Positions 2 through 40,404 of a stretch of DNA of 64,000 nucleotides are shown here, piece by piece. Origin of the DNA: Bacteroidales bacterium (GTDB taxonomy: Bacteria; Bacteroidota; Bacteroidia; Bacteroidales; UBA7960); the NCBI GenBank assembly GCA_041690235.1, contig JAWLHS010000001.1, forward strand, positions 881 to 64,880, written 5' to 3'. Numbering within the stretch: the first letter of the stretch is position 1; each line of letters opens with the position of its first letter. Below the pieces are notes generated by a model. That model did no database searches. It saw nothing but the letters and a program-made list of their open reading frames with translations, and was not told the DNA's origin. The translations under genes were made by a program, and so were the position numbers.

Positions 2-460
2 GTGAGCAGGACGGATTTTCGAAAATTCCTGGTTTACGCCGCCCTGATCCCGGTCCTGATGTTTGCCCTGGGATGGGCCGTTTCCGGATCGCACAAGCTG
101 CTTTCGAAAGCCCATCCCGATGTATACCTGGCCAATCTGCTGGTTGCCAGACCAGACCTCATGCAGACCACCGACAACATCGATATTGAAACTTTTATGG
201 CCTCCGGAAAAACCCTGGATATGCTGGTCGAGGATGCCGGTATCATACAGGAGAAATTCCGCAAGGGCGGTTGGTTTTTGGGCGGATTTATCGGCTTGGT
301 CATCGGATGGACCCTTTTGAATCAGGTGGTCTTCAGAAAACGAACCATTTACGAGGCCAACCGCGGCAACTGTTTTAGCTGCGGGCGTTGCATGGAATAC
401 TGTCCGGTTGGAAAGCCGGAACACCCCTATCACGCCCAAGCCGATGCACAAAGGGATTGA
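2..460 (+). CDS. membrane-associated 4Fe-4S cluster-binding protein, C-terminal part (5' end lies outside the window)
   Basis: The ORF is open from the window edge. It has two hydrophobic segments (LVYAALIPVLMFALGWAV, WFLGGFIGLVIGWTLL) followed by a ferredoxin-type motif, CFSCGRCMEYCP. Confidence 0.55.
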   Translation: MSRTDFRKFLVYAALIPVLMFALGWAVSGSHKLLSKAHPDVYLANLLVARPDLMQTTDNIDIETFMASGKTLDMLVEDAGIIQEKFRKGGWFLGGFIGLVIGWTLLNQVVFRKRTIYEANRGNCFSCGRCMEYCPVGKPEHPYHAQADAQRD

Positions 461-486: not shown

Positions 487-2355
487 ATGAATAGAGAAGA
501 AAAAATAAAGCGAACGAAGCAGGTAGCCATCATTGCCGGGGTGTTCACAGCCCTGGTCAGTCTGTTGCTTTTGCTGAACTATCTGCAAATCAAATCCAGC
601 GACCCCCTGGAAAGCCAAACCCTGAAAACCCTGGTGGACCGCCTTTCAGCAGATCCCGGCAACCATGCACTCATGGAAGAAATCCGTCAGCTTGATTTGC
701 TGGCCCGGAAGGCTTACTTTAACAGCCTCTGGCAGATACGCACCGGAGCCTACCTTCTCCTTTTCGGGGCCATCGTATTGGTCCTGGCCCTGAGGGTTCA
801 CAGCAAGCTGGTCTTCTCCATCGGGAAACCATCCGACGAAAAACCAACAGCCGGCCGGGACAGAAAATTATCGCAACGATGGATTGCGGCAACAGGAGCC
901 ATCATCATCATCGGAGCCGGTATGTCGGCCGTTTTCACCGCCGACTACCTCAGGCCATTCGACACCCTGAAAATGGCAGAAGAAGTTCCAGGCCATGATG
1001 GCATCGAACAGATCGATATTTCCCTGGCAGAGCCCACTGCGAACAGCCCGGAGCCGGAAATGACAACGGGAGGCCCCCCGGCGGGAACTGCAGATGCAGG
1101 CATGGATGCTGATCCCCAGACGCAGGAGATGGTCACGGAAGAAGCATCTGTAGAAACACCGGGTGAAACCACCGCCAGGCAACCCCCACCCCCGTTATTA
1201 ACGGAAGCCTCGGTACGACAAAACCACAACACTTTCAGGGGGCCCTGGGGCACCGGCATCAGTGCCCACGGGAACATCCCCTCTGAATGGGACGCGGCAA
1301 GCGGTGAAAACATCATCTGGAAAACCGAAATCCCCATGCACGGCTACAACTCCCCGGTCCTATGGGACGACAAGCTGTTTATGTCAGGGGCCACCGAAAG
1401 CAGAAGGATGGTCTATTGTTACGACCGCCATACCGGCAGCAAGCAATGGGAAAAGGAGGCCTCCGGAATCCCGGGTTCACCGGCAACACCGCCACGTACA
1501 ACGGATGACACCGGACTGGCAGCGCCGAGCCTGGTGGTCGACGGGCAACGGGTGGTGGCTTTGTTCGGCACGGGCGACATCATTGCCTTCGACCACAACG
1601 GAAACCGTTTATGGGCCAAAAACCTGGGGGTTCCCGCCAATCACTATGGCCACTCTTCTTCATTGTTGATGTGGGACGGGAAGGTGATGGTACAATACGA
1701 CACCCAGGACGGAAGCCGGGTTTTCGCGCTGGAAGCAGCAACGGGACAGATTGCATGGGAAACCCCACGCAGCAACGGGGTAAGCTGGGCCTCCCCCATC
1801 CTGGCGAAAGTCGACGGAACATTTCAACTGATCCTGCTGGCCAACCCCAGCCTTTCCGCCTATGACATCCAAAGCGGACGCCAACTGTGGTCGGTCAATT
1901 GCATGTCGGGCGAGGTGGGTCCTTCTCCGGCTTTTGGCGGGGGACTTGTATATGCTGCCAACGAATACGCCAAAATGGTCGGGGTGGACGCGAAAACGGG
2001 GCAACAGCAGTGGGAAGACAACTATTACCTGCCCGAAGTGGCCAGTCTGCTGTATTTCGACGGACTCCTTTACGTGGCGACCACTTTCGCGGTATTGGCC
2101 TGTTTCGAGGCAAGCAGCGGGGAGTTCTTATGGGAATACGACACGGACGATGGTTTTTATTCTTCTCCGGTCATAGCCGATAACAAATTGTATATTATCG
2201 ACACCAGCGGCAAAGCATATGTCTTTAACCCGGGCAGGGAACCGGATCTGATCGCCACTTCGGAACTCGGGGAAAGGGTGTTCGCCACCCCGGTTTTTGC
2301 GGAGGGAAGATTGTATATCAGGGGAAATCGCCACCTTTACTGTATAGGAAACTAA
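487..2355 (+). CDS. membrane-anchored PQQ-like (BamB-type) beta-propeller repeat protein
   Basis: ATG at 487 (MNREEK), 26 nt after the upstream stop; the 388 start overlaps the upstream gene. Three N-terminal hydrophobic helices and a Pro/Glu/Thr-rich linker precede about 370 aa of repeated propeller blades (e.g. SPVLWDDKLFMSG, GQIAWETPR, GEFLWEYDTDD, SSPVIADNKLYI). Confidence 0.7.
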   Translation: MNREEKIKRTKQVAIIAGVFTALVSLLLLLNYLQIKSSDPLESQTLKTLVDRLSADPGNHALMEEIRQLDLLARKAYFNSLWQIRTGAYLLLFGAIVLVLALRVHSKLVFSIGKPSDEKPTAGRDRKLSQRWIAATGAIIIIGAGMSAVFTADYLRPFDTLKMAEEVPGHDGIEQIDISLAEPTANSPEPEMTTGGPPAGTADAGMDADPQTQEMVTEEASVETPGETTARQPPPPLLTEASVRQNHNTFRGPWGTGISAHGNIPSEWDAASGENIIWKTEIPMHGYNSPVLWDDKLFMSGATESRRMVYCYDRHTGSKQWEKEASGIPGSPATPPRTTDDTGLAAPSLVVDGQRVVALFGTGDIIAFDHNGNRLWAKNLGVPANHYGHSSSLLMWDGKVMVQYDTQDGSRVFALEAATGQIAWETPRSNGVSWASPILAKVDGTFQLILLANPSLSAYDIQSGRQLWSVNCMSGEVGPSPAFGGGLVYAANEYAKMVGVDAKTGQQQWEDNYYLPEVASLLYFDGLLYVATTFAVLACFEASSGEFLWEYDTDDGFYSSPVIADNKLYIIDTSGKAYVFNPGREPDLIATSELGERVFATPVFAEGRLYIRGNRHLYCIGN

Positions 2356-4766: not shown

Positions 4767-6323
4767 ATGATCAAAATAACCATCAATAACAGGGAAGTCG
4801 AAGCCGAAGAGGGCAGCATGTTGCTGGAAGTCTCTGTCGGGGCGGGCTTTCCCATTCCAGCCATGTGTTACAACGGGCAGGAGGAACACTTTACTTCCTG
4901 CATGATATGCCTGGTGAAGGAACGCACCACCGGAAAACTCCTGCCCTCCTGTTCGGTCCGGGTGGCTCCCGGAATGGATATCGTAACAGAGGATGACGAG
5001 ATCAGGACCGCTCGAAAAACAGCCCTGGAATTGCTCCTGTCTGAACACGTCGGTGACTGTGAAGCCCCCTGCCGTATTGCTTGTCCGGCCTTCATGGATA
5101 TTCCCCGAATGAACCGCCTGATTGCAGCCGGGCAGGTTCAACAAGCCCTTGAGGTGGTACGTCGCGACATCGCCCTGCCCGCAGTCCTTGGAAGAATCTG
5201 TCCCGCTCCCTGCGAAGGGGCATGCAAGCGCAGGCCCATCGACCAGCCGGTGGCCATATGCCTGCTGAAACGCTTTACTGCCGATGAATCCGGCCCCTTA
5301 ATGCTGCCGGAAACGGCGACCACCGGCAAAAAAGTGGCCATCATCGGGGCGGGGCCTGCCGGGCTGTCGGCGGCATTCTACCTGCAGCAAAAAGGCATAC
5401 AGGCGGTGATTTTCGACCGCAACCCACTCCCGGGGGGGAGCCTGCAATACGAAATTCCGGATGAAAAACTGGACAAATCCGTGCTTGCCGGAGAGATTTC
5501 ATTGATTCGTCAGACAGGCGTGCAGTTCAGGCCGGACCAACTGATTGATGCAACCGCTTTCGAAAGGCTCCGCAGGGATTACGATGCGGTGGTCGTGGCC
5601 ACCGGGAACCATTCAGCCGCCCTGGATTCCTGGGGTATTGAACACAACGGAAAGCAGTTGCAGGCAGACAAATCGACCCATCAGACCGGGCTCGAAGGTG
5701 TGTTCGCCATAGGCAACGCCAACCGGCCCGGAAAACTCGCCATCCGTTCGGCGGCCCAGGGCAAGGAAGTGGCAAAAAGCATTGAGCAGTTATTCAGCGG
5801 GGAACCGGTGAGGGGAGAAACCAGGCGGTTTAACTCCAGTTTCGGCCGACTGATGGAAGAGGAATTTCCAGAATACCTGAAAGAAGGCAGCCCTGACAAG
5901 CGGCAGCAAGCCCGGGGAAAGCCGGGCAACGGTTTCGACCCCGACCAGGCCCGCATGGAAGCCGCACGGTGTATGCACTGCGACTGCCGCAAACCGGACC
6001 ATTGCAAGCTCAGGGATTATGCCGGGATGTACAAGGCCTCCAGGCGACGCTTCTCTTACTCCAGTCGAAAACCCGTGAGAAAGTTCATGCAGGATGAGGG
6101 GGTTGTCTATGAGCCGGGAAAGTGTATTAAGTGCGGTATCTGTGTGAGACTCACCGCCAGGCACCAGGAAACCTTCGGATTTACATTTATTGGCAGGGGT
6201 TTTGATGTGGAGATAGGGGTTCCCTTCAACGAAACACTGGATAAAGCCCTGGTAAAAACCGCCCAAGCAGTTGCCCTGGCCTGCCCAACCGGGGCGCTTT
6301 GCTTTTCCAAAAATTCAATATAA
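4767..6323 (+). CDS. chimeric Fe-S flavoprotein: NuoG/HydA-type N-terminal 2Fe-2S domain, GltD-like FAD domain, NuoG-type 4Fe-4S C-terminus
   Basis: N-terminus has a C-x10-C-x2-C-x13-C pattern (CYNGQEEHFTSCMICLV...PSC). GltD-type Fe-S motifs follow (DCEAPCRIACP, ICPAPCEGACKR), then the dinucleotide fold KKVAIIGAGPAGLSAAFYL and GVFAIGNA. The C-terminus has CMHCDC...C and CIKCGICVRL...ACPTGAL. Confidence 0.7.
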   Translation: MIKITINNREVEAEEGSMLLEVSVGAGFPIPAMCYNGQEEHFTSCMICLVKERTTGKLLPSCSVRVAPGMDIVTEDDEIRTARKTALELLLSEHVGDCEAPCRIACPAFMDIPRMNRLIAAGQVQQALEVVRRDIALPAVLGRICPAPCEGACKRRPIDQPVAICLLKRFTADESGPLMLPETATTGKKVAIIGAGPAGLSAAFYLQQKGIQAVIFDRNPLPGGSLQYEIPDEKLDKSVLAGEISLIRQTGVQFRPDQLIDATAFERLRRDYDAVVVATGNHSAALDSWGIEHNGKQLQADKSTHQTGLEGVFAIGNANRPGKLAIRSAAQGKEVAKSIEQLFSGEPVRGETRRFNSSFGRLMEEEFPEYLKEGSPDKRQQARGKPGNGFDPDQARMEAARCMHCDCRKPDHCKLRDYAGMYKASRRRFSYSSRKPVRKFMQDEGVVYEPGKCIKCGICVRLTARHQETFGFTFIGRGFDVEIGVPFNETLDKALVKTAQAVALACPTGALCFSKNSI

Positions 6324-6342: not shown

Positions 6343-7446
6343 ATGATGACCCTTAGCGCCCTTCTATTCCTGCTGTTTTTCATCCCACAAGCCAACCAGT
6401 CCGGCTGGCCCGAATTTCGTGGTGGACAACACCTTCGGGGTACCACCTCAGAAACCATTCCCTTCATGGTGGAGCAGCATTGGGTGTTTCAAACGGGCGA
6501 TGAGATCAAGGCATCCCCCGTCATTCAGGGGAACAGCATCGTGATCGGAAGCACCGACCAACATGTGTATTGCCTTGACATGGAGGGGAAGCTGATTTGG
6601 AAGTTCAAAGCCGGCAATGCCATTGAAGCTTCGGCCCTCATCCGAAACGGAATCGTTTATATCGGTGACCTGCATGGCAATCTTTTTGCGCTTGAATTGG
6701 CCAGCGGAAAACAAATCTGGAAGTACGAAACCCAAAACCAGATCATGGCCGCACCAAACTGGTGGAGCGATGGAGAGCGCACGTACATCCTTGTGGGAGC
6801 ATACGATTATTACCTGCATTGCGTGGATGCGAAAACCGGACAGCCCATCTGGAAGTATGAGGCACAGAACTACCTGAATGCAGCAGTGGCCGTCGAAGGC
6901 AATCTGGCCGTCTTCGGGGGGTGCGACGGACTCCTGCACGTTGTCGACATTGAAACCGGAAATGCAGCATCCGCCATCGAAATCGCCACCTATGTAGCCG
7001 GATCAACCGCATTGGACAATGGCAAGGCTTTTGTTGGTGACTATGACGGCATCTTCAGTTGCATTGACTACCGTTCCGGTCAAATCCAGTGGCAGTTTGA
7101 GAGCCGCGACCGCCAGCTGCCCTTTATCGGCTCCCCGGCCATAACGGATAAGCATGTATTCATTGGCAGCCGCGACCGCTTTGTGTATGGTCTGGATATA
7201 AGCACCGGGTCAGTCATATGGCAGAAAAATACCGGTAGCCGTGTCGATGCCTCCCCGCTTGCAGACCGCCGGAACTTGCTTGTAGCGAATATGCGGGGCG
7301 ATCTTTTGCTTTTCAACCAGGAAACCGGTCAAACCGTCTGGACCTACGAGCTGGGAAGCCCGCTTATCGGACATCCGGCTGTATCGCAGGGAAAAATCAT
7401 TGCCGGCGCACAGGACGGCAATATCTATTGCCTGGGTGCGCCCTGA
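6343..7446 (+). CDS. exported PQQ-like (BamB-type) beta-propeller repeat protein
   Basis: ATG at 6343 gives a signal-peptide-like N-terminus, MMTLSALLFLLFFIPQANQ. About eight repeated blades follow (ASPVIQGNSIVIGSTDQHVYCLD, GKLIWKFK, GKQIWKYE, GQPIWKYE, GQIQWQFE, GSVIWQK, GQTVWTYE). Confidence 0.75.
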   Translation: MMTLSALLFLLFFIPQANQSGWPEFRGGQHLRGTTSETIPFMVEQHWVFQTGDEIKASPVIQGNSIVIGSTDQHVYCLDMEGKLIWKFKAGNAIEASALIRNGIVYIGDLHGNLFALELASGKQIWKYETQNQIMAAPNWWSDGERTYILVGAYDYYLHCVDAKTGQPIWKYEAQNYLNAAVAVEGNLAVFGGCDGLLHVVDIETGNAASAIEIATYVAGSTALDNGKAFVGDYDGIFSCIDYRSGQIQWQFESRDRQLPFIGSPAITDKHVFIGSRDRFVYGLDISTGSVIWQKNTGSRVDASPLADRRNLLVANMRGDLLLFNQETGQTVWTYELGSPLIGHPAVSQGKIIAGAQDGNIYCLGAP

Positions 7447-7801: not shown

Positions 7802-9160
7802 ATGAATATTGCACACATCATACCCGGTTCAGGCGGAAGCTTTTATTGCGGCAACTGCCTGCGCGACAGCAAACTCTTTGAAGCCATGCGGGCCCAGGGC
7901 CACAACGCCATCAAAATCCCCATGTACCTGCCCCTGTTCTCGCAAGATACGACCAATGGCATGACCCCGGTGTTTTACGGGGCCATCAGCATCTATTTGA
8001 AGCAACTGTATCCCGTGTTCCGGCATGCCCCCAAATGGTTCGACCGGCTCCTCAACGCAAAATTCATGCTCCGGTTCGCCGCAAGCCAGGCCAATTCAAC
8101 GAGGGCCAGGGGACTGGAAGACATGACCGTGTCCATGCTCATGGGTGAACATGGGAAGCAGAAAGGGGAACTCGAAAAAATGGTTCACTGGCTCGAAACA
8201 CACTATAAGGCCGATGTCATACACATCTCAAATGCGTTGCTGCTCGGACTGGCCCATAAGCTGAAGGAGCACCTCAGGGTGCCGGTAATCTGCTCCCTGC
8301 AGGACGAAGATACCTGGGTTGACGGGATGGAACCCGAATTTGCAGAAAAAGCCTGGGAACTGATGGCAGAGAAGTCGCGCGACATCGATCTGTTTGTTTC
8401 GGTAAGCCACTACTATACCGAGTTCATGAAACATAAACTCCGTCTGCCGGAAGAAAAGATCACCACCCTTCACCTGGGCGTTGACCCATCCGACTATCAT
8501 TACATCAATGCCGCCGACAAAAGCCGGACCATCGGGTTCCTGTCGAGACTGTGCCGGGAGAACGGACTGGACATCCTGGTGGACGCCTTTGTCCTTTTAA
8601 GGAAACAGCCGGCTTACGAAGATGTGAAGTTGTTGCTAACCGGGGGACAAACAGCGGATGACAATGCCTTTATCAAAGAGCAAAAAAAGAAGTTACAACA
8701 AGCCGGCCTGGAAAAGGCGGTGGAATTCATTCACGACTTTGACCAGGCCACCCGGAAAGACTTCTTCGACCGGGTCATGCTGCTTTCGGTTCCGGTACGC
8801 CACGGGGAAGCGTTTGGGATTTACCTTACCGAGGCCATGGCAGCAGGCATTCCAATCGTTCAACCCGCCCTGGGCGCTTTCCCCGAAATCGTAGAAAAAT
8901 CAGGCGGTGGAATGGTTTATTCCGAAAATACCCCTGAACAACTGGCCGGAGCCCTCGAAGCATTATTCTCGGATAAAGAAAAAAGGCGGCAGTTAAGCCA
9001 AAAGGCAAGACAAAGCATCGAAAAGAAGTTCAATGTCCACAATCTGACCAGGGAAATGACCGCTTTGTACCAACAGGCCATTGATCATAATGCCGGCAAA
9101 ACCCGTAAAACAGAATCTTATGCAAATCCAGGTAAAAAACCTGTACAAGACTTATCGTAA
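7802..9160 (+). CDS. glycosyltransferase family 4 (GT-B, group 1)
   Basis: ATG at 7802 (MNIAHIIPGSGGSFYCGNC). The C-terminal GT-B signature is GEAFGIYLTEAMAAGIPIVQP. The length of about 450 aa is typical. Confidence 0.75.
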   Translation: MNIAHIIPGSGGSFYCGNCLRDSKLFEAMRAQGHNAIKIPMYLPLFSQDTTNGMTPVFYGAISIYLKQLYPVFRHAPKWFDRLLNAKFMLRFAASQANSTRARGLEDMTVSMLMGEHGKQKGELEKMVHWLETHYKADVIHISNALLLGLAHKLKEHLRVPVICSLQDEDTWVDGMEPEFAEKAWELMAEKSRDIDLFVSVSHYYTEFMKHKLRLPEEKITTLHLGVDPSDYHYINAADKSRTIGFLSRLCRENGLDILVDAFVLLRKQPAYEDVKLLLTGGQTADDNAFIKEQKKKLQQAGLEKAVEFIHDFDQATRKDFFDRVMLLSVPVRHGEAFGIYLTEAMAAGIPIVQPALGAFPEIVEKSGGGMVYSENTPEQLAGALEALFSDKEKRRQLSQKARQSIEKKFNVHNLTREMTALYQQAIDHNAGKTRKTESYANPGKKPVQDLS

Positions 9161-9803
9161 CACCCTTGGGGGCATTGAGCGTGAGGTCCTGCGGGGCCTC
9201 AATCTCCAGGTGGGCAGCGGAGAAAAAATCGCAGTTACGGGTCCTTCGGGCAGTGGCAAAACCACCCTGCTGAACCTGATCGGCACCCTTGATAAACCAG
9301 ACAAGGGAGAAATTCACATCGGAAACCTATCATTGTCGGATATGAAAGCCGACCAGATCCTCTCCTTTCGGAACAGAACCGCAGGCTTTGTCTTCCAGCT
9401 GCACCACCTGTTGCCACAGTGCACCCTGCTCGAAAATGTTTTGCTTCCCACCCTGCCATTAAAAGGCGACAAGACCGGCTTCAATGACAGGGCGAAAGAC
9501 CTGCTGAAACTGATGGGCATCTGGGAGCAACGAGACAACAAGCCCGGAGAGTTGTCGGGTGGCGAATGCCAGCGGGCCGCTGTGGCCAGGGCGCTGATCA
9601 ACCAGCCCAGGATTTTGTTGGCCGATGAACCCACCGGGTCGCTGGATGCCAAAAACGCGGACCTGCTGATCGACCTGCTCTCCAGCATCAATAAAGAAAT
9701 GGGCATCACCCTGCTGATCGCAACCCATGCAAAGAGCGTCTCCTCCAGGATGGATCTGGTTTACGGGATCACGGAAGGAAAGCTGGCGTTGCAAAAGGCC
9801 TGA
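9120..9803 (+). CDS. ABC transporter ATP-binding protein (LolD/YbbA/MacB-ATPase type)
   Basis: Walker A GPSGSGKTT, signature LSGGECQR, Walker B ILLADEPTGSLD. The start is ambiguous: TTG 9081, ATG 9090 or ATG 9120. All three overlap the 3' end of the glycosyltransferase gene. Confidence 0.9.
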   Translation: MQIQVKNLYKTYRNTLGGIEREVLRGLNLQVGSGEKIAVTGPSGSGKTTLLNLIGTLDKPDKGEIHIGNLSLSDMKADQILSFRNRTAGFVFQLHHLLPQCTLLENVLLPTLPLKGDKTGFNDRAKDLLKLMGIWEQRDNKPGELSGGECQRAAVARALINQPRILLADEPTGSLDAKNADLLIDLLSSINKEMGITLLIATHAKSVSSRMDLVYGITEGKLALQKA

Positions 9804-9892
9804 ACCGGCCCCCTTTTAAGGCGGCAGTCAGCGGCAATACCCGGCGCTTCTGCAACCTGCTGAATGACCTTGGAACAAATAAGATTTCAATA

Positions 9893-12800
9893 ATGACATT
9901 GTTTCGGCTTATCATCCGCACACTGAAGCATTACCTCGGCACCAACCTGGCCACCGCGGCAGGGATCGCCATTTCCACGGCGGTCATTTGCGGGGCACTG
10001 ATCATTGGCGACTCCCTCAGAAAAAGCCTCTTGCACGTGGTGGATGTCCGCCTGGGCCAAATCACCCACACCATTACGGCCGGGGAACGCATGTTCACCC
10101 GTGGTTTTGCCGAAAACCTGGATGATATCGGCGGACTGGCGGCTGCTCCCGCCCTGAAAAGCGAGGCCGTGGTGACGGTTCAGGGGAACGATCAGCGCGT
10201 CAGCAAGGTACAGGCATGGGGGGTGGACAGTCGGTTCGGGATGGTACTTGGGGCCCCGGACGAATATTTTGAGATGGGCCCGGGGGAGGCCATCATTAGC
10301 CTGAACCTGGCCACGCGTCTGGGACTAGAACCCGGTGATTTCTTTCTGATGCGGATCCGCCAAACCGGACCCATCCCCGCCAATACCCCATTCGTTTCGG
10401 AGGGGGACCAAACCATCTCACGAAGGGTAAAGGTTAAAGCCATTGCCGGCAGGGAGGATTTTGGTCATTTCAGCCTCCGCCCATCACAATCGGCCCCCCT
10501 GAATCTATTTGTGGATCTCGAATGGCTGAACGAAGTGATGAACCTGGAAAACATGGCCAATCTGGTGGCATTGGATGCCGGGACTGCAATGATGAGCTCC
10601 CGCATTACGGAATTGGTCCGGCAATCCTGGCAGCCCGAAGACGGCCATATGAAACTGGAATATCAGGCGTCCGGCAGCTGGAGGCTGACCTCTGAAAGGG
10701 TTTTTTTTGAAAACTACCTGGCTGACAGGATTGAGGCGCTCTTCCCTGAATCGGAATTCTCTCTGACCTATTTTGTAAACGAACTGGAGCACCGTGATCG
10801 TGTAACGCCCTATTCCTTTGTTGCTGCAGTGGACCGGACCGGCCACCCCCTGCTCGCCCCAAATGAAACCCTGATCAACCAGTGGCTGGCCGATGACCTC
10901 ATGGCAAAAACAGGCGACACCCTGCGAATGCGCTATTTTGAGGTCGGCCCCCTGAGGGAATTAAAAGAAAAGGAAGCTGTTTTCATTGTGAAAGGCATTC
11001 TTCCTATGGACCAGGCTGAAGCCGACGGTTATCTGATGCCGGATCTTCCCGGACTCTCCGGTGCAGGAAGCTGCAGTGACTGGGATACAGGCATCCCCAT
11101 CAACCTGGATGCCATCCGCCCAAAGGATGAGCATTACTGGGAGGTTTATAAAGGCGCTCCTAAAGCCTATATTTCCCTGGACAGGGGAAGGTCCCTCTGG
11201 GAAAACCGCTTTGGAAACCTTACCAATGTCATGATCCCAGGCAGTCCATCGGATGGCCCGCAGATAAAGGAAAGGCTCGGCCAACACATCGACCCTTTCA
11301 GGCTGGAGTTCCAGGTTAATCCCGTAAGAGAGCAGGGACTGGAAGCAGCGAGGGGCGGGGTCGATTTCGGGCAATTGTTTGCCGGACTGGGCATGTTTAT
11401 CATTCTTGCCGGACTCCTCCTGACGGTGCTATTGTTGAATTTCAGTCTGGAAAAGAGAAAAACCCAGTTGCAGTTGATGGCCTCCCTGGGCTTCCCGGAA
11501 AAGCTGATCAGGAAAATCCTGGTAACAGAGGCATTGGCTGTAGCAGTCCTTGGAGCCCTTGCCGGATTGGCTGTATCCATAGCATACAGCAGGCTGGTGT
11601 TTATGGGATTAAACCGGATATGGCATGACATTGTCAGGACGGATGTGTTGCAGCTGTATTACAACCCCTGGATGCTGGTCGCCGGACTTATTGCGGGCAT
11701 CTCGCTTGGAATGGGTGTGGTCCTGTTCGGCATTCGAAGCATGCTGAAAAAAAACATCAGGAAAACGGAAACCGGTTCTCAAAAACGGCCTTCCCGGAAA
11801 CCGGGACGGCAGCTCCCGGTCTGGTTGTCCGCCGCATTCCCGGCCACTTCTCTGCTGCTGGCGGGTTATCTGGGAGCCACTTCACAATTTACACAGGTTT
11901 TGGCTTGGTTTCTCGCAGGAGGAATTCTATTGATCGGACTCCTCTTGCTGGCACACACATATTTATATCTTCCGATGCGGGTGTCCTCGGAAACATTAAA
12001 CCTAAACCGGTTGAGCCGAAAAAATATCAGGAGAAACCCGGCCCGCAGTTTTACCATCATCGCCCTGCTGGCCCTGGGCAGCTTCGTTATCGTAGTCACG
12101 GCCGCCAACCGAAAAGACCTGTCTACAGACGCGCTTGCCCCCACGGGCGGAACAGGTGGCTTTCTGTTCATGGCAGAAACCACCGCACCAGTCTTGAGAA
12201 ACCTTAACGGGAACGATACCAGGCTGGAGCTCGGCATCCCCGAAGCGGCCTCCTTCGTGCAGTTCTTATCGGTCTATGACGACGATGCCTCCTGCCTGAA
12301 TCTGAACCGGGTCGAGAACCCCCGCATCCTGGCCACCGACCCGGAACAACTTTTGGGCAGGTTCTCCTTCAAGGCCGTGCATCCCCGGGCAAACAAACAG
12401 GAGCCATGGGGCTCGCTGAACGCCGATCTGAACGGAGTGATCCCGGCCATTGCCGACCAAAGCGTGATCCAGTGGGGCCTGGGGAAAAAACTGGGAGACA
12501 CCCTGACTTACATCAATGCCCGTGGTCATGAGGTGAGGCTTTTGCTGATCGGCGGACTGGCCAATTCGGTGTTTCAGGGAAATGTCATCATTTCATCGGC
12601 GAATTTCCTGGAGCATTTCCCCTCATCGGGGGGGTCCGATGTTTTTCTGGTAGAAGCCCCTGCCCCGGAGGAGGCTGCTCTTCTCCAGGAGCTCGGTTTC
12701 ATATTCCGGGACCATGGCTGGGAAATGCGCAGTGCCCGGGACAAGCTGGCAGCGTTCAATAGCGTGGAAAACACCTACCTTGGCATCTTTTTTCTCATGG

Positions 12801-13156
12801 GGGCCTTTGGCATGTTGCTGGGGACCGTCGGACTGGCCATTATTCTGGCAAAAAGCATGCTTGAACGGCGCAGCGAAACAGCCCTGCTCAGGGCCCTTGG
12901 CTACCCTTTTCGAACCCTGGTGCGGCTTTTTTCATCCGAATACTTCATTTTGTTTATTGCCGGGATGCTGGCAGGAACCCTGGCCGCCATCCTCGCAACC
13001 CTCCCCACCTTCCTGGAAGGCAGTCAAAATATTCCCCTGGGTTTTCTGGCCCTGGTTCTTGGGGTTCTTTTCCTGAACGGAGCGGCCTGGATTCTGATCA
13101 TTCCCGCCGCAATGATCAAAAAAATGTTGCTGACCGAAGCCCTTCGCAATGAGTAA
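9893..13156 (+). CDS. large FtsX-family ABC transporter permease (YbbP-like, two FtsX modules)
   Basis: The protein is 1087 aa. It has an N-terminal TM helix, a large extracytoplasmic region, a central TM bundle, a second extracytoplasmic region and a C-terminal TM bundle. It directly follows the ATPase gene. Confidence 0.85.
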   Translation: MTLFRLIIRTLKHYLGTNLATAAGIAISTAVICGALIIGDSLRKSLLHVVDVRLGQITHTITAGERMFTRGFAENLDDIGGLAAAPALKSEAVVTVQGNDQRVSKVQAWGVDSRFGMVLGAPDEYFEMGPGEAIISLNLATRLGLEPGDFFLMRIRQTGPIPANTPFVSEGDQTISRRVKVKAIAGREDFGHFSLRPSQSAPLNLFVDLEWLNEVMNLENMANLVALDAGTAMMSSRITELVRQSWQPEDGHMKLEYQASGSWRLTSERVFFENYLADRIEALFPESEFSLTYFVNELEHRDRVTPYSFVAAVDRTGHPLLAPNETLINQWLADDLMAKTGDTLRMRYFEVGPLRELKEKEAVFIVKGILPMDQAEADGYLMPDLPGLSGAGSCSDWDTGIPINLDAIRPKDEHYWEVYKGAPKAYISLDRGRSLWENRFGNLTNVMIPGSPSDGPQIKERLGQHIDPFRLEFQVNPVREQGLEAARGGVDFGQLFAGLGMFIILAGLLLTVLLLNFSLEKRKTQLQLMASLGFPEKLIRKILVTEALAVAVLGALAGLAVSIAYSRLVFMGLNRIWHDIVRTDVLQLYYNPWMLVAGLIAGISLGMGVVLFGIRSMLKKNIRKTETGSQKRPSRKPGRQLPVWLSAAFPATSLLLAGYLGATSQFTQVLAWFLAGGILLIGLLLLAHTYLYLPMRVSSETLNLNRLSRKNIRRNPARSFTIIALLALGSFVIVVTAANRKDLSTDALAPTGGTGGFLFMAETTAPVLRNLNGNDTRLELGIPEAASFVQFLSVYDDDASCLNLNRVENPRILATDPEQLLGRFSFKAVHPRANKQEPWGSLNADLNGVIPAIADQSVIQWGLGKKLGDTLTYINARGHEVRLLLIGGLANSVFQGNVIISSANFLEHFPSSGGSDVFLVEAPAPEEAALLQELGFIFRDHGWEMRSARDKLAAFNSVENTYLGIFFLMGAFGMLLGTVGLAIILAKSMLERRSETALLRALGYPFRTLVRLFSSEYFILFIAGMLAGTLAAILATLPTFLEGSQNIPLGFLALVLGVLFLNGAAWILIIPAAMIKKMLLTEALRNE

Positions 13157-13272: not shown

Positions 13273-14772
13273 ATGATACAGGATTTCATACTGAATATTG
13301 CCCTGCTGCTCATTCTTGCATTCGTCTATGGGGTTTTTGCGTATTTGCCGGGGCAAAGCCGCCTGGTCAACCGGTCACTACTCGGCCTTTGGTTCGGGCT
13401 AATCGCCGTGGCGGGAATGTTGATGCCCTTTGTTTATTCCGAGGGGGCGATTTTTGACGGACGGTCGGTGATTCTTGCCCTTGCCGGGTTGTATGGCGGC
13501 TGGTTACCCGCTTTGATTTCTGCCGTGATCGCCGGTTCCTACAGAATCTTCCTGGGCGGGGCCGGGATGTGGGCCGGCCTGGCAACCATTGTTTTTTGCT
13601 CCATGGCGGGACTGTTTTTCAGGTGGCGGTATGCCAACCAGCCGGAACGGATTGATTTGCTTTCCCTTTACGGAATCGGTGTGCTTGTGCACTTGATCAT
13701 GCTTGCCTGCCAGTTGCTGTTCCCATGGCCCACCGGCCTGGCCATCATCAGCCGTATCTGGCTGCCGGTGATGCTGCTGTTCCCGCTTGCATTCGTAATC
13801 ATAGGCCAGACCCTGGGCGGTATCGGCAGACGCATCAAGGCCGAACAGGAAACGCGTGAGGCAGAATCCCGCTACAGGGCCTTGTTCAACAGCATCAGGG
13901 ATGCCATCCTGGTGGCCGATACCAGACGGTTTATTACGCATTGCAATCCGGCATTTACTGATTTGTTCGGCTATACACTCCAGGAGATCAGGGGCAAAAA
14001 AACCCTCACCATCTACAAAAACGAAGATCAATTCAGGGCGTTGGGACAGGCCATCACGGAAGAAGACGGGGCCAGGCCGATCCTCCACACCGTGGATTAT
14101 CAGAAAAAGGACGGGACGGTGTTCCCCGGGGAAACCGCCGTGTTTTTGCAAAAAGACAGCGCAGGGAAGGTTTCAGGGTTTATCGGGCTGATCAGGGATG
14201 TTTCGGACAGGATGCTGGCAGAGACCACCATGCGGATTAGCGAGAAGAAGTACCGGATGGCCTTTAAAACCATTCCGGATGCCCTCTCCATCAATCGCTT
14301 ATCCGACGGATTGTTCATTGAAATCAACGAAAGTTTTACCCGAACAATCGGCTATGCGCCCGAAGAGATCATTGGAAAAACAGCAGGCGAAGTCGAGATA
14401 TGGGCCGACCCGTCCGACAGGAACAAGCTGGTCGACGGCTTGAAAAAGCATGGGCACGTGGAAGGTTTGGAAGCAAGGTTCCGCATGAAAGACGGGAAGA
14501 TTGTCCACGGCTTGATGTCAGCGGCCTTCATCAGCCTGAACGGCGAGCTCCACATCCTGTCCATTACAAGGGACCACTCAGAGCGAAAACGGGCCGAAAT
14601 GGAATTGCGGAAGCTAAAGGATGAGCTGGAACAAAAGGTGGATGAAAAGACCAGTGAATTGCAGGAAAGGGTCAGGGAGCTGGAGCGCTTTCGCCAAGCG
14701 ACCATCGACCGTGAGCTCCGGATAAAGGAACTGCGTGATGAAATTAAAAGGCTGAAAGGGAACAAGCAATGA
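13273..14772 (+). CDS. 5TMR-LYT (LytS/YhcK-type) membrane sensor with two PAS domains and a C-terminal coiled coil; no kinase domain
   Basis: The N-terminal 190 aa are multi-TM with GRSVILALAGLYGGWLPALISAVIAGSYRIFLGG. Two PAS-like blocks follow (ESRYRALFNSIRDAILV..., EKKYRMAFKTIPDALSI...). The protein ends in the coiled coil ELRKLKDELEQKVDEKTSELQERVRELERF. No H-box or ATPase motifs are present. Confidence 0.75.
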   Translation: MIQDFILNIALLLILAFVYGVFAYLPGQSRLVNRSLLGLWFGLIAVAGMLMPFVYSEGAIFDGRSVILALAGLYGGWLPALISAVIAGSYRIFLGGAGMWAGLATIVFCSMAGLFFRWRYANQPERIDLLSLYGIGVLVHLIMLACQLLFPWPTGLAIISRIWLPVMLLFPLAFVIIGQTLGGIGRRIKAEQETREAESRYRALFNSIRDAILVADTRRFITHCNPAFTDLFGYTLQEIRGKKTLTIYKNEDQFRALGQAITEEDGARPILHTVDYQKKDGTVFPGETAVFLQKDSAGKVSGFIGLIRDVSDRMLAETTMRISEKKYRMAFKTIPDALSINRLSDGLFIEINESFTRTIGYAPEEIIGKTAGEVEIWADPSDRNKLVDGLKKHGHVEGLEARFRMKDGKIVHGLMSAAFISLNGELHILSITRDHSERKRAEMELRKLKDELEQKVDEKTSELQERVRELERFRQATIDRELRIKELRDEIKRLKGNKQ

Positions 14773-17030
14773 AACGGATGGGTAAAGAATATGTGCCGCT
14801 GCTTGTTCTGTTGTGCCTTTGGGGTGGAAGACTAAGCGGGGCCGGAAATGCGGATTCCCTGTATTCTCACAGGCAATTCATCACCATTGCCTCCGAGCCG
14901 GATTATCCCCCTTATTGTATTGTGGACGAAAACGGGATGGCCGACGGGTTTTCCATTGACCTGTTTAAAGCAGCGGCCGGGGCCGTCGGATTGGATGTCC
15001 GGATTAAGATCGGCCTGTGGGACATCATCCGGCAGGATCTGGCAGCAGGCCGGATCGATGCATTGCCCCTGGTTGGCAGAACGCCTGAACGGGAAGCCCT
15101 CTATGACTTTACCCTGCCTTATCTTTCACTGCACGGGGCCGTATTTGCGCGCAAAGGACGCACGGACATCCGTTCGGTCAGTGACCTGAGGGACAAGGAA
15201 GTGGTGGTCATGAAGGGAGACAATGCGGAGGAGTTCCTCCTGCGTGAAAACATCACCGATCATATGATTACCACCCACACTTTTGAGGAGGCCTTCAGAA
15301 AGCTTGCAGCGGGAGAGCACGACGCCGTGGTCACCCAACGGATCACCGGTCTGCGGCTTCTTGAAAACATGGGCATCAGGTCGGTCGAACCCCTGGATAT
15401 CCGTCTTCCGGCCTTTCGCCAGGATTTTTGCTTTGCGGTGCAGAAAGGTGACACCACGCTACTTAACCTGTTAAACGAAGGGCTTTCTGTTGTGATCGCA
15501 GATGGCACTTTTGATGAGATCCGCCTGAAATGGTTCGGTCCCGCCATCAAGGAGGAGCTTGACCTGCGCGACATGATACGGATTGCCCTGACATTCATCC
15601 TCCCGTTTCTCGTCGTTTTCTCCATTGCCGCCGTGGTTTTTCTCCGCCGTGAGGTCCGACGAAAAACAAGGCGCCTGAACACCGAGGTTTCGGAACATAA
15701 AAAAACACTGCAAAGCCTCCGCAAACAGCAATTGCTCCTGGAAGAAAGCAGGGGACAGCTCCAATTGATTCTGAACTCCACGGCTGAAGGCATATTCGGA
15801 GTGGACAGCAATGGGAAATGCATATTCTGCAATGAGGCCAGCCTGCGCATCCTCGGGTATGACAACGACACAGAACTGATCGGCAAGGACATGCATCGCC
15901 TGATCCATCACAGCAGGGAAGACAAGACCCCTTATCCGGCTGAGAATTGTCCCGTTGCCCGGGCTTTCCTCCATGGGGAGGAAGTCCATGTGGAAGAGGA
16001 TGTTTTCTGGCGCTCCGACAACACCCCTGTTCCGGTCGATTACTGGTCCTATCCCATCCGTAAGGACAAGCGGGTGGAGGGCTCCGTCACGACCTTTTTC
16101 GACATCACCGACAGAAGGAAACTTGTTTCCGAACTCCGCGGGGCCGAGAAAGAATTGAGGGCCCTGGCCGATAACCTGGAAAAAAAGGTGAACGAGCGAA
16201 CCGCAGAACTGGAGGGAAAGGTGCGGGAACTCGACAAAAGCCAGAAAGCCATGCTTTATATGGTAGAGGACTTGAACGAGCTTACCCGGGAGCTGAGGAC
16301 TGAACAGGAGAAGCTGGAATATTCCAACAAGGAGCTGGAGTCATTTTCCTATTCTGTCTCGCATGACCTTCGCGCCCCCCTAAGGGCCATTGACGGTTTT
16401 TCGAAGTTTTTGCTGGAAGATTACAGCGAGCGGCTCGATGCGGAAGGACAACGGCTCTTGAAAGTAATCAAAGAAAATGCCCGCAAAATGGACAAACTGA
16501 TCTCCGACCTGCTGAGTTTATCTCGCCTGTCCAGGACTGAAGTCCGGTTGACCAGGGTGGACATGCGGCAATTGGCCGCATCGGTATTCAACGAACAAAC
16601 CATGGCAGATGCCGGTGAATCATTTAACCTGACCCTGGGCGACTTGCCCGTCGTATTGGCTGATCCTGCCTTAATGAAACAGGTCTGGGAAAACCTGATA
16701 AGCAATGCAATCAAATACAGCTCAAAATCCAGAACAAAAAAAATTGAGATTGCTTGTGTGGAAAACGATGAAACCTTCCAATTTTCCATCAGGGACTACG
16801 GGGCCGGATTCGAAAAGAAATACAAGAACAAACTGTTCGGGGTTTTTCAAAGACTTCATAAAGCAGCGGATTATCCGGGAACAGGCATCGGGCTTTCCAT
16901 TGTCCAACGGATCATTGCCCGCCACGGCGGAGAAGTCTGGGCCGAGGGAGACGTTAACAAGGGCGCTGTTTTCGGTTTTTCCCTGCCCAAAAAAGCGGAA
17001 GAAACCCAGCCCGGAACCCATCCGATCTAA
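14769..17030 (+). CDS. sensor histidine kinase with periplasmic solute-binding (SBP family 3) domain, PAS, HisKA and HATPase_c
   Basis: Order of domains: signal/TM, SBP_bac_3-like region (ASEPDYPPYCIVDENG...), a TM helix, PAS, coiled coil, H-box FSYSVSHDLRAPL, then ATPase motifs NLISNAIKY, RDYGAGF, GTGIGLSIV. The ATG overlaps the upstream stop (ATGA at 14769-14772). Confidence 0.9.
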   Translation: MKRMGKEYVPLLVLLCLWGGRLSGAGNADSLYSHRQFITIASEPDYPPYCIVDENGMADGFSIDLFKAAAGAVGLDVRIKIGLWDIIRQDLAAGRIDALPLVGRTPEREALYDFTLPYLSLHGAVFARKGRTDIRSVSDLRDKEVVVMKGDNAEEFLLRENITDHMITTHTFEEAFRKLAAGEHDAVVTQRITGLRLLENMGIRSVEPLDIRLPAFRQDFCFAVQKGDTTLLNLLNEGLSVVIADGTFDEIRLKWFGPAIKEELDLRDMIRIALTFILPFLVVFSIAAVVFLRREVRRKTRRLNTEVSEHKKTLQSLRKQQLLLEESRGQLQLILNSTAEGIFGVDSNGKCIFCNEASLRILGYDNDTELIGKDMHRLIHHSREDKTPYPAENCPVARAFLHGEEVHVEEDVFWRSDNTPVPVDYWSYPIRKDKRVEGSVTTFFDITDRRKLVSELRGAEKELRALADNLEKKVNERTAELEGKVRELDKSQKAMLYMVEDLNELTRELRTEQEKLEYSNKELESFSYSVSHDLRAPLRAIDGFSKFLLEDYSERLDAEGQRLLKVIKENARKMDKLISDLLSLSRLSRTEVRLTRVDMRQLAASVFNEQTMADAGESFNLTLGDLPVVLADPALMKQVWENLISNAIKYSSKSRTKKIEIACVENDETFQFSIRDYGAGFEKKYKNKLFGVFQRLHKAADYPGTGIGLSIVQRIIARHGGEVWAEGDVNKGAVFGFSLPKKAEETQPGTHPI

Positions 17031-31603: not shown

Positions 31604-31687
31604 GCCCGGGTGGCGGAATTGGTAGACGCGTTGGTCTCAAACACCAATGATAGCAATATCGTGCCGGTTCGATCCCGGCCCCGGGTA
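31604..31687 (+). tRNA. tRNA-Leu (anticodon CAA)
   Basis: Folded by hand. Acceptor GCCCGGG/CCCGGGT, D-arm GCG-GAATTGGTAGA-CGC, anticodon stem TTGGT/ACCAA with loop CTCAAAC. The long variable arm is GATA-GCAA-TATC and the T-arm is GCCGG-TTCGATC-CCGGC, with discriminator A. CCA is not encoded. Confidence 0.9.
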
Positions 31688-31694
31688 CTTTAAA

Positions 31695-40297: not shown

Positions 40298-40404
40298 GAA
40301 TTGATGGTTCACGACATATATTCAAAAAGCACGCCATTAAGATTATATCGCTTTACATCAGGGACTTCACATTGAGGCGGTAAACAAGGTGAAGCAAAAA
40401 TGAA

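Follow-up and report, generated by a model that had tools for sequence, protein, structure and literature searches.

The window analysed here is a stretch of 64,000 nucleotides from a Bacteroidales bacterium (contig JAWLHS010000001.1 of assembly GCA_041690235.1, positions 881 to 64,880 of the forward strand). Close to its start lies a gene with an intact reading frame for an iron-sulfur (Fe-S) flavoprotein of 518 amino acids (aa), which is the subject of this analysis and is called short BfuA in the following. The sequence is identical to a record entitled 'MAG: FAD-dependent oxidoreductase [Bacteroidales bacterium]' (FAD, flavin adenine dinucleotide). By sequence, the nearest solved chains are NfnA of C. 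saccharolyticus (Csac; 9bov_A, E value 1e-92), NfnA of T. sibiricus (Tsib; 9n5u_A, 1e-80), and StnC of S. ovata (8oh5_C, 1e-80). All three are large subunits of Bfu-type transhydrogenases, which couple nicotinamide adenine dinucleotide phosphate (NADPH) to NAD+ and ferredoxin (NADPH:NAD+/ferredoxin transhydrogenases). Short BfuA is an Fe-S flavoprotein related to NfnA and StnC, which possesses neither their NADP(H)-binding domain nor their Fdh-like domain. Its gene begins 33 bases downstream of one whose product is, judging by its sequence, a fused BfuC-BfuB protein (BfuCB); we are highly confident that short BfuA is a BfuA homologue without NADPH domain and that it is paired with BfuCB. Table 1 lists both genes together with their neighbours.

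Table 1. Features at the short bfuA locus. Positions refer to the window; L001 is one of the related loci examined. ORF, open reading frame; pLDDT, predicted local distance difference test; ABC, ATP-binding cassette.
Feature	Position	Strand	Evidence
NapH-like membrane polyferredoxin, C-terminal part; gene cut by the window edge	2..460	+	57 % identity to L001 NapH-like 330-461, including CFSCxRCxxYCP
Membrane-anchored PQQ_2/BamB-like beta-propeller	487..2355	+	Pfam PQQ_2; L001 homologue has 3-4 N-terminal hydrophobic segments (hydropathy scan)
Fused BfuC-BfuB, 776 aa	2403..4733	+	Pfam, NCBIfam, alignment to NfnB/StnB/HydB
Short BfuA/NfnA-like iron-sulfur flavoprotein, 518 aa	4767..6323	+	ORF; nearest solved chains 9bov_A, 9n5u_A, 8oh5_C; model pLDDT 93
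N-terminal [2Fe-2S] domain, residues 1-75, corresponding to Csac NfnA cluster A1 (C4 in StnC numbering)	4767..4991	+	Fer2_4
GltD/NfnL-type two-[4Fe-4S] domain, residues 98-174	5058..5288	+	Fer4_20; ligands mapped onto Csac NfnA
FAD-type Rossmann domain, first part, residues 188-280: GAGPAG 194-199, D217, GG 223-224, ATG motif 278-280	5328..5606	+	Pfam, motif scan
30-residue junction, residues 281-310, replacing the NADPH-binding Rossmann domain of relatives (about 150-170 residues)	5607..5696	+	Alignments, interval statistics, model
FAD domain, second part, residues 311-345: VFAIGN (GD-type motif, Asn317), then helix	5697..5801	+	Alignment, motif scan, conservation
NuoG/HydA-type Fe-S region, residues 398-511; two clusters corresponding to NfnA A3 and A2	5958..6299	+	Alignment to 9bov_A 578-674; Fer4_Nqo3 sub-threshold
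Exported beta-propeller, signal-like segment MMTLSALLFLLFFIPQANQ; start codon inferred	6343..7446	+	Pfam Beta-prop_ACSF4/PQQ_2
Bacteroidota-specific extension: GT4 glycosyltransferase, LolD-like ABC ATPase, double-FtsX permease	7802..13156	+	Pfam, synteny

Domain structure and the missing NADP(H)-binding domain

A sequence-only reading of the gene had described an N-terminal NuoG/HydA-type 2Fe-2S pattern, which is followed by the Fe-S motifs and the FAD fold of GltD and by a C-terminal NuoG-like 4Fe-4S pattern. All of these motifs were located at the level of residues. The cysteines of the first pattern have exactly the proposed spacing (C34-x10-C45-x2-C48-x13-C62) and coincide with a Fer2_4 match (residues 1-75, E 1.6e-12); the GltD-type motifs DCEAPCRIACP (97-107) and CPAPCEGAC (145-153) are accompanied by a match to Fer4_20 (98-174, E 1.9e-17). 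The nucleotide-binding motif GAGPAG (194-199) marks the FAD fold, where Pyr_redox_2 was matched at its N-terminal part only (188-296). CIKCGIC (453-459) and CPTGA (506-510) belong to the C-terminal region aligned with Csac NfnA, in which Fer4_Nqo3 (451-511) stayed below its threshold. One further cluster motif, C402-x2-C405-x-C407-x5-C413, had been overlooked.

The interval between DAVVVATG (273-280) and GVFAIGNA (311-318) comprises exactly 30 residues, which is the number previously estimated. For E. coli K-12 GltD, where the motif of the second Rossmann fold (GGGDTA) lies at residue 294, 198 residues were measured, close to the earlier estimate of roughly 190; counting in the alignment gave 179 residues for Csac NfnA. 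In order to place these values, the interval G280..F313 was determined for the query and its best 150 representatives, one per 50 %-identity cluster. The distribution has two separate peaks: in 141 sequences the interval is at most 55 residues long (mode 30-39), in the other 10 it measures 155-181, and intermediate lengths do not occur. These two groups are named short and long forms below.

A structure model based on a two-phylum alignment of 127 sequences reached a pLDDT of 93.0 and a predicted template modelling score (pTM) of 0.90; it superseded an earlier, moderate model from 31 sequences (pLDDT 66.9). The FAD domain was modelled at pLDDT 94-98. Residues 281-311 (pLDDT 94-97) form one short helix and isolated bridges, and there is no beta-alpha-beta unit among them. 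GAGPAG is the sole GxGxx[GA] motif of the protein, and neither the motif scan nor the structure model revealed a second dinucleotide site elsewhere in the 518 residues. A Foldseek search gave query-normalised template modelling (TM) scores of 0.84-0.87 to 9bov_A, 8oh5_C, and 9n5u_A/9n5v_A. The corresponding alignments span 678-708 columns for a query of 518 residues, i.e. about 165-190 extra ones, which indicates that the NADPH domain of NfnA and StnC is looped out. The alignments with solved chains, long forms, and GltD, the model, and the Foldseek results all agree with the earlier proposal that a second, NADPH-binding Rossmann domain is missing. The proposed distinction from StnC/NfnB-type subunits was borne out as well and can be extended: in the superposition the NADPH domain of StnC and NfnA is skipped, and their Fdh-like domain is absent too. 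Since the protein ends at approximately residue 677 of the NfnA and StnC chains, which consist of 1172-1178 residues, it does not contain the C-terminal Fdh/NuoG-like domain with clusters A4/A5.

The alignment with Csac NfnA also allows us to trace the borders of the loss. Residues 1-282 of the query align to 9bov_A 3-288 and residues 272-515 to 9bov_A 426-674; the region around DAVVVATG is aligned twice, once to the strand just before the NADPH domain and once to the final strand of this domain. Because the same region matches both flanking strands, the deletion seems to join two homologous 'ATG'-type motifs, which amounts to a clean excision of one domain. Thus, we infer that the NADP(H) Rossmann domain was cut out between its two flanking 'ATG'-type motifs.

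None of the curated profiles describes this architecture. The best NCBIfam model, PRK12814 (657 positions), stops matching after residue 285 and reaches 382 bits compared with a cut-off of 916; PRK12771 and TIGR01317 score 231 versus 516 and 155 versus 448 bits, respectively. The NuoG model TIGR01973 is restricted to residues 4-98 (87.5 versus 470 bits), and there is no C-terminal molybdopterin-like domain. The protein is therefore below every curated NCBIfam cut-off for GltD, PRK12814, and NuoG; no Pfam or NCBIfam model was found at cut-off for the short architecture or for the neighbouring proteins. Given that the NADP(H) and the Fdh-like domains are absent and that the scores are below the cut-offs, the sequence argues that short BfuA is neither an Nfn/Stn transhydrogenase nor a glutamate synthase small subunit, and it should not be filed as either. 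An NADPH-dependent reduction of NAD+ and ferredoxin is predicted to be absent.

Cofactor sites and the partner protein BfuCB

Conservation was counted over the 141 short and 10 long representatives, which are less than 50 % identical to each other, plus two outgroups. The assignment of clusters rests on the published Csac and Tsib structures (PMC11829005, PMC12018979). Ligands of the [2Fe-2S] cluster A1 are C34, C45, C48, and C62, and these four cysteines are kept in 137-138 of the 141 short forms. For the [4Fe-4S] cluster A7, residues C106, C145, C149, and K168 align with C108, C147, C151, and K170, the A7 ligands of Csac NfnA (PMC11829005). The [4Fe-4S] cluster A6 is assigned to C98, C102, and C153, with either E150 or C165 as fourth ligand. 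A3 (C402/C405/C407/C413) and A2 (C453/C456/C459/C506) are kept in 139-141 of the 141 short forms. In short and long forms alike, the cysteines that serve as cluster ligands are nearly invariant, the alternative A6 ligand C165 excepted. The whole path between FAD and the BfuBC core of NfnABC and StnABC is kept; it consists of A1, A2, A3, A6, and A7 plus the FAD-type Rossmann fold.

The fingerprint of the FAD site is similarly well preserved among the short forms: the counts are 141/141, 141/141, and 140/141 for GxGxxG, 136/141 for D/E217, and 139/141 and 138/141 for GG. The frequency of the majority residue is 0.50-0.52 in the FAD domain, 0.54-0.64 in the Fe-S domains, 0.32-0.36 in linkers, and lowest in the junction (0.27). 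Such a pattern indicates purifying selection on the short form; the FAD domain is probably under selection and probably binds a dinucleotide. A different picture emerges for the arginine equivalent to R239 of StnC, which all 10 long forms and the two outgroups possess, as opposed to just 34 of the 141 short forms. Mutating R239 cripples the activity of Stn, and the residue is needed for the NADPH-linked activity (PMC10482914). We read these data as suggesting that a dinucleotide-binding fold is still needed, whereas the chemistry of hydride transfer involving NADPH has been lost.

The upstream protein BfuCB consists of a NuoE-like [2Fe-2S] domain (residues 1-150), a thioredoxin-like domain, a NuoF module for flavin mononucleotide (FMN) and NAD(H) with a [4Fe-4S] cluster, and a C-terminal ferredoxin-like domain with 2x[4Fe-4S]; the Pfam matches are 2Fe-2S_thioredx, Complex1_51K, NADH_4Fe-4S, and Fer4_21. 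Residues 172-775 align end to end with Tsib NfnB (9n5u_B, E 1e-212), Csac NfnB (9bov_B), StnB (8oh5_B), and HydB chains, and the matches to NfnB/StnB/HydB are far better than those to NuoF of complex I. A linker rich in Lys and Gly (approximately residues 150-172) joins BfuC and BfuB in one chain; in the solved Nfn, Stn, and Hyd complexes that were matched, the B chains are separate and align only from query residue 168 or later. According to the alignment to 9n5u_B, the motifs AFM, GAFVCGEE, and GGPSG are all present in BfuCB. AFM, the Phe of GAFVCGEE, and GGPSG are conserved in bifurcating and absent in non-bifurcating homologues (PMC12018979).

Spread of the short form and its gene cluster

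The best 120 homologues of short BfuA are, without exception, 492-557 aa long and 55-73 % identical to it. In a scan of one genome per species, at least 576 relatives were found to be encoded among the 600 pattern matches listed. The best 80 of the matches listed all come from Bacteroidota and are near-full-length matches of the short form; they belong mainly to Prolixibacteraceae (Draconibacterium, Maribellus, Mariniphaga, Mangrovibacterium), plus Lewinellaceae and Cytophagales. Among them are the cultured isolates Maribellus luteus XSD2 and Draconibacterium sediminis JN14CK-3; Mariniphaga sediminis is also present. A homologue search starting from a divergent member uncovered a sister clade in Planctomycetota (Pirellulales, Rhodopirellula, Thermoguttaceae), whose top 120 hits all have 517-565 aa. 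The sequence-only reading had allowed for a deletion that is absent from close relatives; instead, the short form is kept in hundreds of relatives in genomes of Bacteroidota and Planctomycetota, and it accounts for 141 of the 151 sequences compared above.

In neighbour-joining (NJ) trees rooted on fragments of StnC and Csac NfnA, the long forms are basal, 139-140 short forms constitute one clade, and one or two short sequences fall outside of it. This topology fits a single ancient loss of the NADPH domain. Several long-form sisters (P0174, P0212, P0245, P0255) have degenerate second Rossmann motifs, namely GGDAEA, GPLETG, GAGPAS, and AAGSPG, which suggests that selection on NADPH binding was relaxed before the domain was deleted. 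Three of the representatives are fusions. P0151 (1133 aa) combines the short form with a complete second GltD-like module containing a full Pyr_redox_2 domain and 2x Fer4; P0156 (951 aa) carries a URO-D-like domain; in P0155 (867 aa), a beta-propeller is attached, which may be a read-through into a neighbouring gene.

The genes of the cluster lie on one strand in the order one or two PQQ_2/BamB-like propellers, NHL-repeat protein, small membrane protein, NapG-like protein, NapH-like protein, membrane-anchored propeller, BfuCB, and short BfuA. An eight-gene core recurs in Planctomycetota. In Bacteroidota the cluster extends to the exported beta-propeller, the GT4 glycosyltransferase, the LolD-like ABC ATPase, and the double-FtsX permease; the exported propeller downstream of short bfuA is absent in the planctomycetal loci. 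Synteny was counted in 80 species-level loci of Bacteroidota, considering for each gene only those with enough flanking sequence. With the same order and strand, BfuCB is found upstream in 69/73 loci, the NapH-like protein in 60/64, and the NapG-like protein in 59/63. The membrane-anchored propeller is conserved upstream in 63/66, and the exported propeller is located downstream in 70/73. The corresponding numbers for GT4, ABC ATPase, and FtsX permease are 58/65, 56/59, and 44/50.

The NapG-like protein has about 190 aa and four Cys motifs. In both phyla it carries twin-arginine motifs (SRRKFIQ, DRRQFIR, and DRREFVR in L001:3441-4022, L003:3731-4306, and L090:2494-3099), and because of this signal the ferredoxin is predicted to be exported with its clusters pre-assembled. 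The NapH-like protein possesses seven hydrophobic segments, as deduced from a hydropathy scan, as well as two CxxCxxCxxxC and two CxxxCP motifs; its matches to the Fer4_5 and NapH/MauN models do not reach the cut-off. CxxCH haem motifs were not noticed when reading the sequences of the beta-propeller proteins of the cluster. The NHL/SGL-like periplasmic protein in L001 (2077-3051) contains the Cys-rich motif SGCCNPAHFC.

Two loci illustrate how the cluster varies with more distant relatives. The divergent member P0198 (locus L085, 38 % identity) keeps the NapG-like, NapH-like, and BfuCB proteins; the propellers are replaced by four small genes for 2x[4Fe-4S] ferredoxins, a DsbD_2-type membrane protein, and CarboxypepD_reg-domain proteins. 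In L088, a long-form sister with an NADPH-type domain resides in the same type of cluster (PQQ_2, NHL, NapG-like, NapH-like, NuoEF fusion). This occurrence implies that the cluster is older than the loss and that the NADPH site is dispensable for the function of the cluster.

Downstream of the cluster, on the same strand (13273..17030), a 5TMR-LYT/PAS sensor and a hybrid SBP_bac_3/PAS histidine kinase are encoded, which may regulate it; this pair does not occur at the corresponding position in L001 or L002. The window has a GC content of about 0.55 at 1-16 kb, which drops to 0.44-0.51 at 20-48 kb, and additional permease genes of the MacB/FtsX type are located at 32038..34521 and 37946..40312, both on the reverse strand. 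Scans of the window for tRNA genes and Rfam families identified only one tRNA-Leu(caa), at 31604..31688.

Proposed electron transfer partners and comparison with known systems

Our favoured reading, to which we assign a probability of roughly 0.55, is that short BfuA acts as an electron wire of the BfuA type within a complex linked to NAD(H) and ferredoxin; the third partner of this complex would be something other than NADP(H), probably a NapGH-like membrane module. NAD(H) would react at the FMN of the BfuB part, and ferredoxin probably at the C-terminal 2x[4Fe-4S] domain of BfuCB. Short BfuA would carry the third, mid-potential branch to a partner other than NADP(H); we infer that the complex of BfuCB and short BfuA cannot be an NADPH transhydrogenase. 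The most likely third partner would be the NapH-like polyferredoxin with its cytoplasmic [4Fe-4S] face, together with the NapG-like ferredoxin exported by twin-arginine translocation (Tat), such that electrons might move between cytoplasmic NADH/ferredoxin and periplasmic beta-propeller/NHL proteins. The FAD could act as an electron sink or as a one-/two-electron converter at the A6/A7 end, or its domain could serve for docking or accommodate a small acceptor of a new kind. Candidate exits for electrons are the flavin face or the A2/A3 surface, which would be exposed without an Fdh-like domain. Going further, short BfuA and BfuCB might be the cytoplasmic head of an undescribed membrane-spanning redox machine of Bacteroidota and Planctomycetota, possibly a confurcating Bfu module sitting on the NapH-like protein and connected via the NapG-like protein to the propeller and NHL proteins; this extension we regard as tentative, with the odds against it.

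Several observations weigh against the favoured reading. Motifs alone suggest that BfuCB bifurcates electrons, and it is by gene order alone that the link from BfuCB and short BfuA to the NapGH-like module is deduced. The internal branches of the NJ trees are very short and carry no bootstrap values. As a long-form sister occurs in the same cluster type (L088), the loss of the domain could be neutral trimming that left the function of the cluster unchanged. In four of 73 loci (L014, L028, L044, L048) BfuCB is not found upstream. Two of these, L014 and L028, have no other cluster gene except for a weak ABC-type match. The other two, from two Bacteroidales genomes, keep the downstream propeller, GT4, and ABC genes; upstream, a HemN-like radical SAM enzyme, a protoporphyrinogen-oxidase-like flavoprotein, and a ferrochelatase take the place of BfuCB (L044: 5781-9604; likewise L048). 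Moreover, the Asp of the GD motif (Tsib D466) is relaxed to S/G/D/N/A in the short forms, and the A7 lysine is variable (K in 74/141, E in 26, H in 17). Due to these relaxed residues around the flavin ring, FAD may be missing or catalytically inactive in some members of the family.

Short BfuA could alternatively belong to a soluble NADH(/ferredoxin):X oxidoreductase, whose exposed flavin meets a quinone, a polysulfide or disulfide, oxygen, or peroxide, while the NapGH-like and propeller genes would be separate or loosely linked. The conservation of the FAD fingerprint and of the whole FAD domain speaks for this possibility, and structures of NfnL and StnC imply that removing the NADPH domain should bare the flavin face on which the nicotinamide stacks (PMC10482914). 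It also agrees with L014 and L028, where the short form occurs outside such a cluster, and with the fusions to other catalytic modules (P0151, P0156). However, the neighbours of the isoalloxazine are not conserved (the R239 equivalent and the variable GD Asp) and the junction is the least conserved stretch of the protein, both of which argue against a new substrate pocket. The NapGH-like synteny across two phyla also weighs against a soluble enzyme, which we consider not very likely. Dispensing with the flavin altogether leads to a pure Fe-S wire, in which a vestigial flavin domain would serve as scaffold for A6/A7, the flavin would be absent or inert, and electrons would leave near the A2/A3 surface that is covered by the Fdh-like domain in NfnA. 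A2 is indeed the branch point in NfnA and StnC (PMC11829005, PMC12018979). A wire would likewise account for the loss of the catalytic Arg, the relaxed GD Asp, and the variable A7 Lys, for a member (P0139) without the whole VFAxG(D/N) motif in the cluster context, and for the long-form sisters in the same cluster, which show that the NADPH site is dispensable. On the other hand, GxGxxG, D/E217, and GG are kept in 136-141 of the 141 representatives in spite of their low pairwise identity, the FAD domain is conserved like the Fe-S domains, and no cysteine of A6/A7 varies, contrary to what one would expect if this branch were a dead end. We regard this variant as unlikely, too.

The remaining explanations are much less probable. 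Bacteroidetes reportedly possess an 11-subunit complex I in which the function of NuoEFG is missing, and BfuCB plus short BfuA hold equivalents of NuoE, NuoF, and the N-terminal cofactors of NuoG, so that they might constitute a detachable N-module for NADH input. Nevertheless, the pair was never encoded beside nuo genes in about 90 loci examined, the C-terminal domain of NuoG is absent, the NCBIfam scores for NuoG and NuoF are far below cut-off, and the nearest relatives of both proteins are the bifurcating Nfn/Stn/Hyd enzymes rather than complex I. This role is improbable. An NADPH-linked transhydrogenase working through a non-canonical site or a separately encoded domain would be in line with the overall homology to NfnA/StnC and NfnB/StnB, and with source records that label relatives as 'NADPH-dependent glutamate synthase beta subunit-like'. 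The protein has one dinucleotide motif only and no second Rossmann unit in the model, and the R239 equivalent of StnC is lost; in the loci examined there is no conserved Pyr_redox-type gene in the cluster that could supply an NADPH domain separately, and conservation is lacking for the NDH-2-like gene of L001 and for the FAD_oxidored gene of L083. We regard NADPH linkage as very improbable. The chance that the short interval is a deletion caused by assembly or sequencing, or the mark of a pseudogene, is close to nil: the frame is intact, the sequence bears the signs of purifying selection, and the architecture is shared by hundreds of independent assemblies, among them complete genomes and those of isolates.

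Bfu enzymes are classed by the 'third substrate', which BfuA delivers to a conserved core for NAD(H) and ferredoxin, and a membrane-spanning machine of the kind outlined above would, if true, be a new Bfu 'type' with its third substrate outside the cytoplasm. The conserved NapGH-like link also yields a candidate, open to testing, for the cytoplasmic electron donor of NapH/NosR/MauN-type polyferredoxins, which has long been unknown. Homology would assign this large clade to the Nfn/Stn transhydrogenases or label it 'glutamate synthase small subunit-like'. As short BfuA cannot bind NADPH at the canonical site, a coupling of NADPH and ferredoxin that is deduced from annotation or homology would be wrong for Prolixibacteraceae, other Bacteroidales, and Pirellulales. 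In addition, a natural minimal BfuA without NADPH and Fdh-like domains and with fused partners could help to dissect the mechanism of Bfu enzymes. The family is of interest because it is abundant, spread over two phyla, and consistently associated with a transmembrane redox module.

Neither a form of NfnA, StnC, or GltD without NADPH domain nor a gene cluster of this kind was found to be described in searches of open-access papers and preprints, in the Bfu classification paper, or in the supplement of PMC9304861. The NapGH-like genes resemble NapG/NapH, NosG/NosH, and MauM/MauN, which also combine a Tat-exported poly-[4Fe-4S] protein with a membrane protein having CxxxCP and two CxxCxxCxxxC motifs. 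Note that this likeness is architectural only: the scores of the neighbouring genes are far below the family cut-offs (44 versus 213 bits with the NapH model TIGR02163, 37 versus 234 with PRK09477), and seven rather than four membrane segments are predicted for the NapH-like protein. Nap, nitrous-oxide reductase, or cytochrome genes were not found near the NapGH-like genes in the loci examined.

With the N-terminal Fe-S domains of NuoG, HydA, HoxU, and FdhA, short BfuA shares the same type of [2Fe-2S] cluster and two subsequent [4Fe-4S] clusters. In contrast to these proteins, a flavin/Fe-S insert follows the [2Fe-2S] domain, and catalytic or molybdopterin-like domains are lacking. In NuoG, the first [4Fe-4S] motif is of the His-containing N5-type, whereas that of short BfuA is CxxCxCx5C. 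The Fer4_20 and FAD domains are homologous to those of GltD, NfnB (NfnL), SudA, and the N-terminal module of dihydropyrimidine dehydrogenase; unlike short BfuA, proteins of the GltD/NfnB/SudA type carry NuoG-type Fe-S domains at neither end and always contain the NADPH domain. Closer are the long forms of about 645-706 aa (PRK12814-type, 'putative NADPH-dependent glutamate synthase small subunit'; for example P0229, P0262, P0211), which are 36-41 % identical to short BfuA. They have the N- and C-terminal Fe-S modules in common with it and are likewise devoid of the Fdh-like domain, but their interval of 155-181 residues accommodates a second Rossmann domain, with a canonical motif in about half of them.

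The most similar proteins of known structure are NfnA of C. saccharolyticus (9bov/9bp5) and T. sibiricus (9n5u/9n5v) and StnC of S. ovata (8oh5), where the modules follow each other in the same order: first a [2Fe-2S] domain, then an insert of the NfnL/GltD type that contains two [4Fe-4S] clusters (one of them the Cys3-Lys cluster A7) and the FAD fold, and finally two NuoG-type [4Fe-4S] clusters. What NfnA and StnC have in addition are the NADP(H) Rossmann domain (about 150 residues in Csac NfnA) and the Fdh/NuoG-like domain with A4/A5 (about 280-500 residues), which in StnC mediates the formation of tetramers. Short BfuA represents a large, uncharacterised family in two phyla, which resembles BfuA of the Nfn/Stn type but is devoid of two defining features of NfnA and StnC. 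Both short BfuA and NfnA/StnC are encoded beside a BfuB/BfuC homologue; for NfnA and StnC this is a three-gene operon, whereas short BfuA belongs to a membrane/periplasmic cluster, in which BfuC and BfuB are fused.

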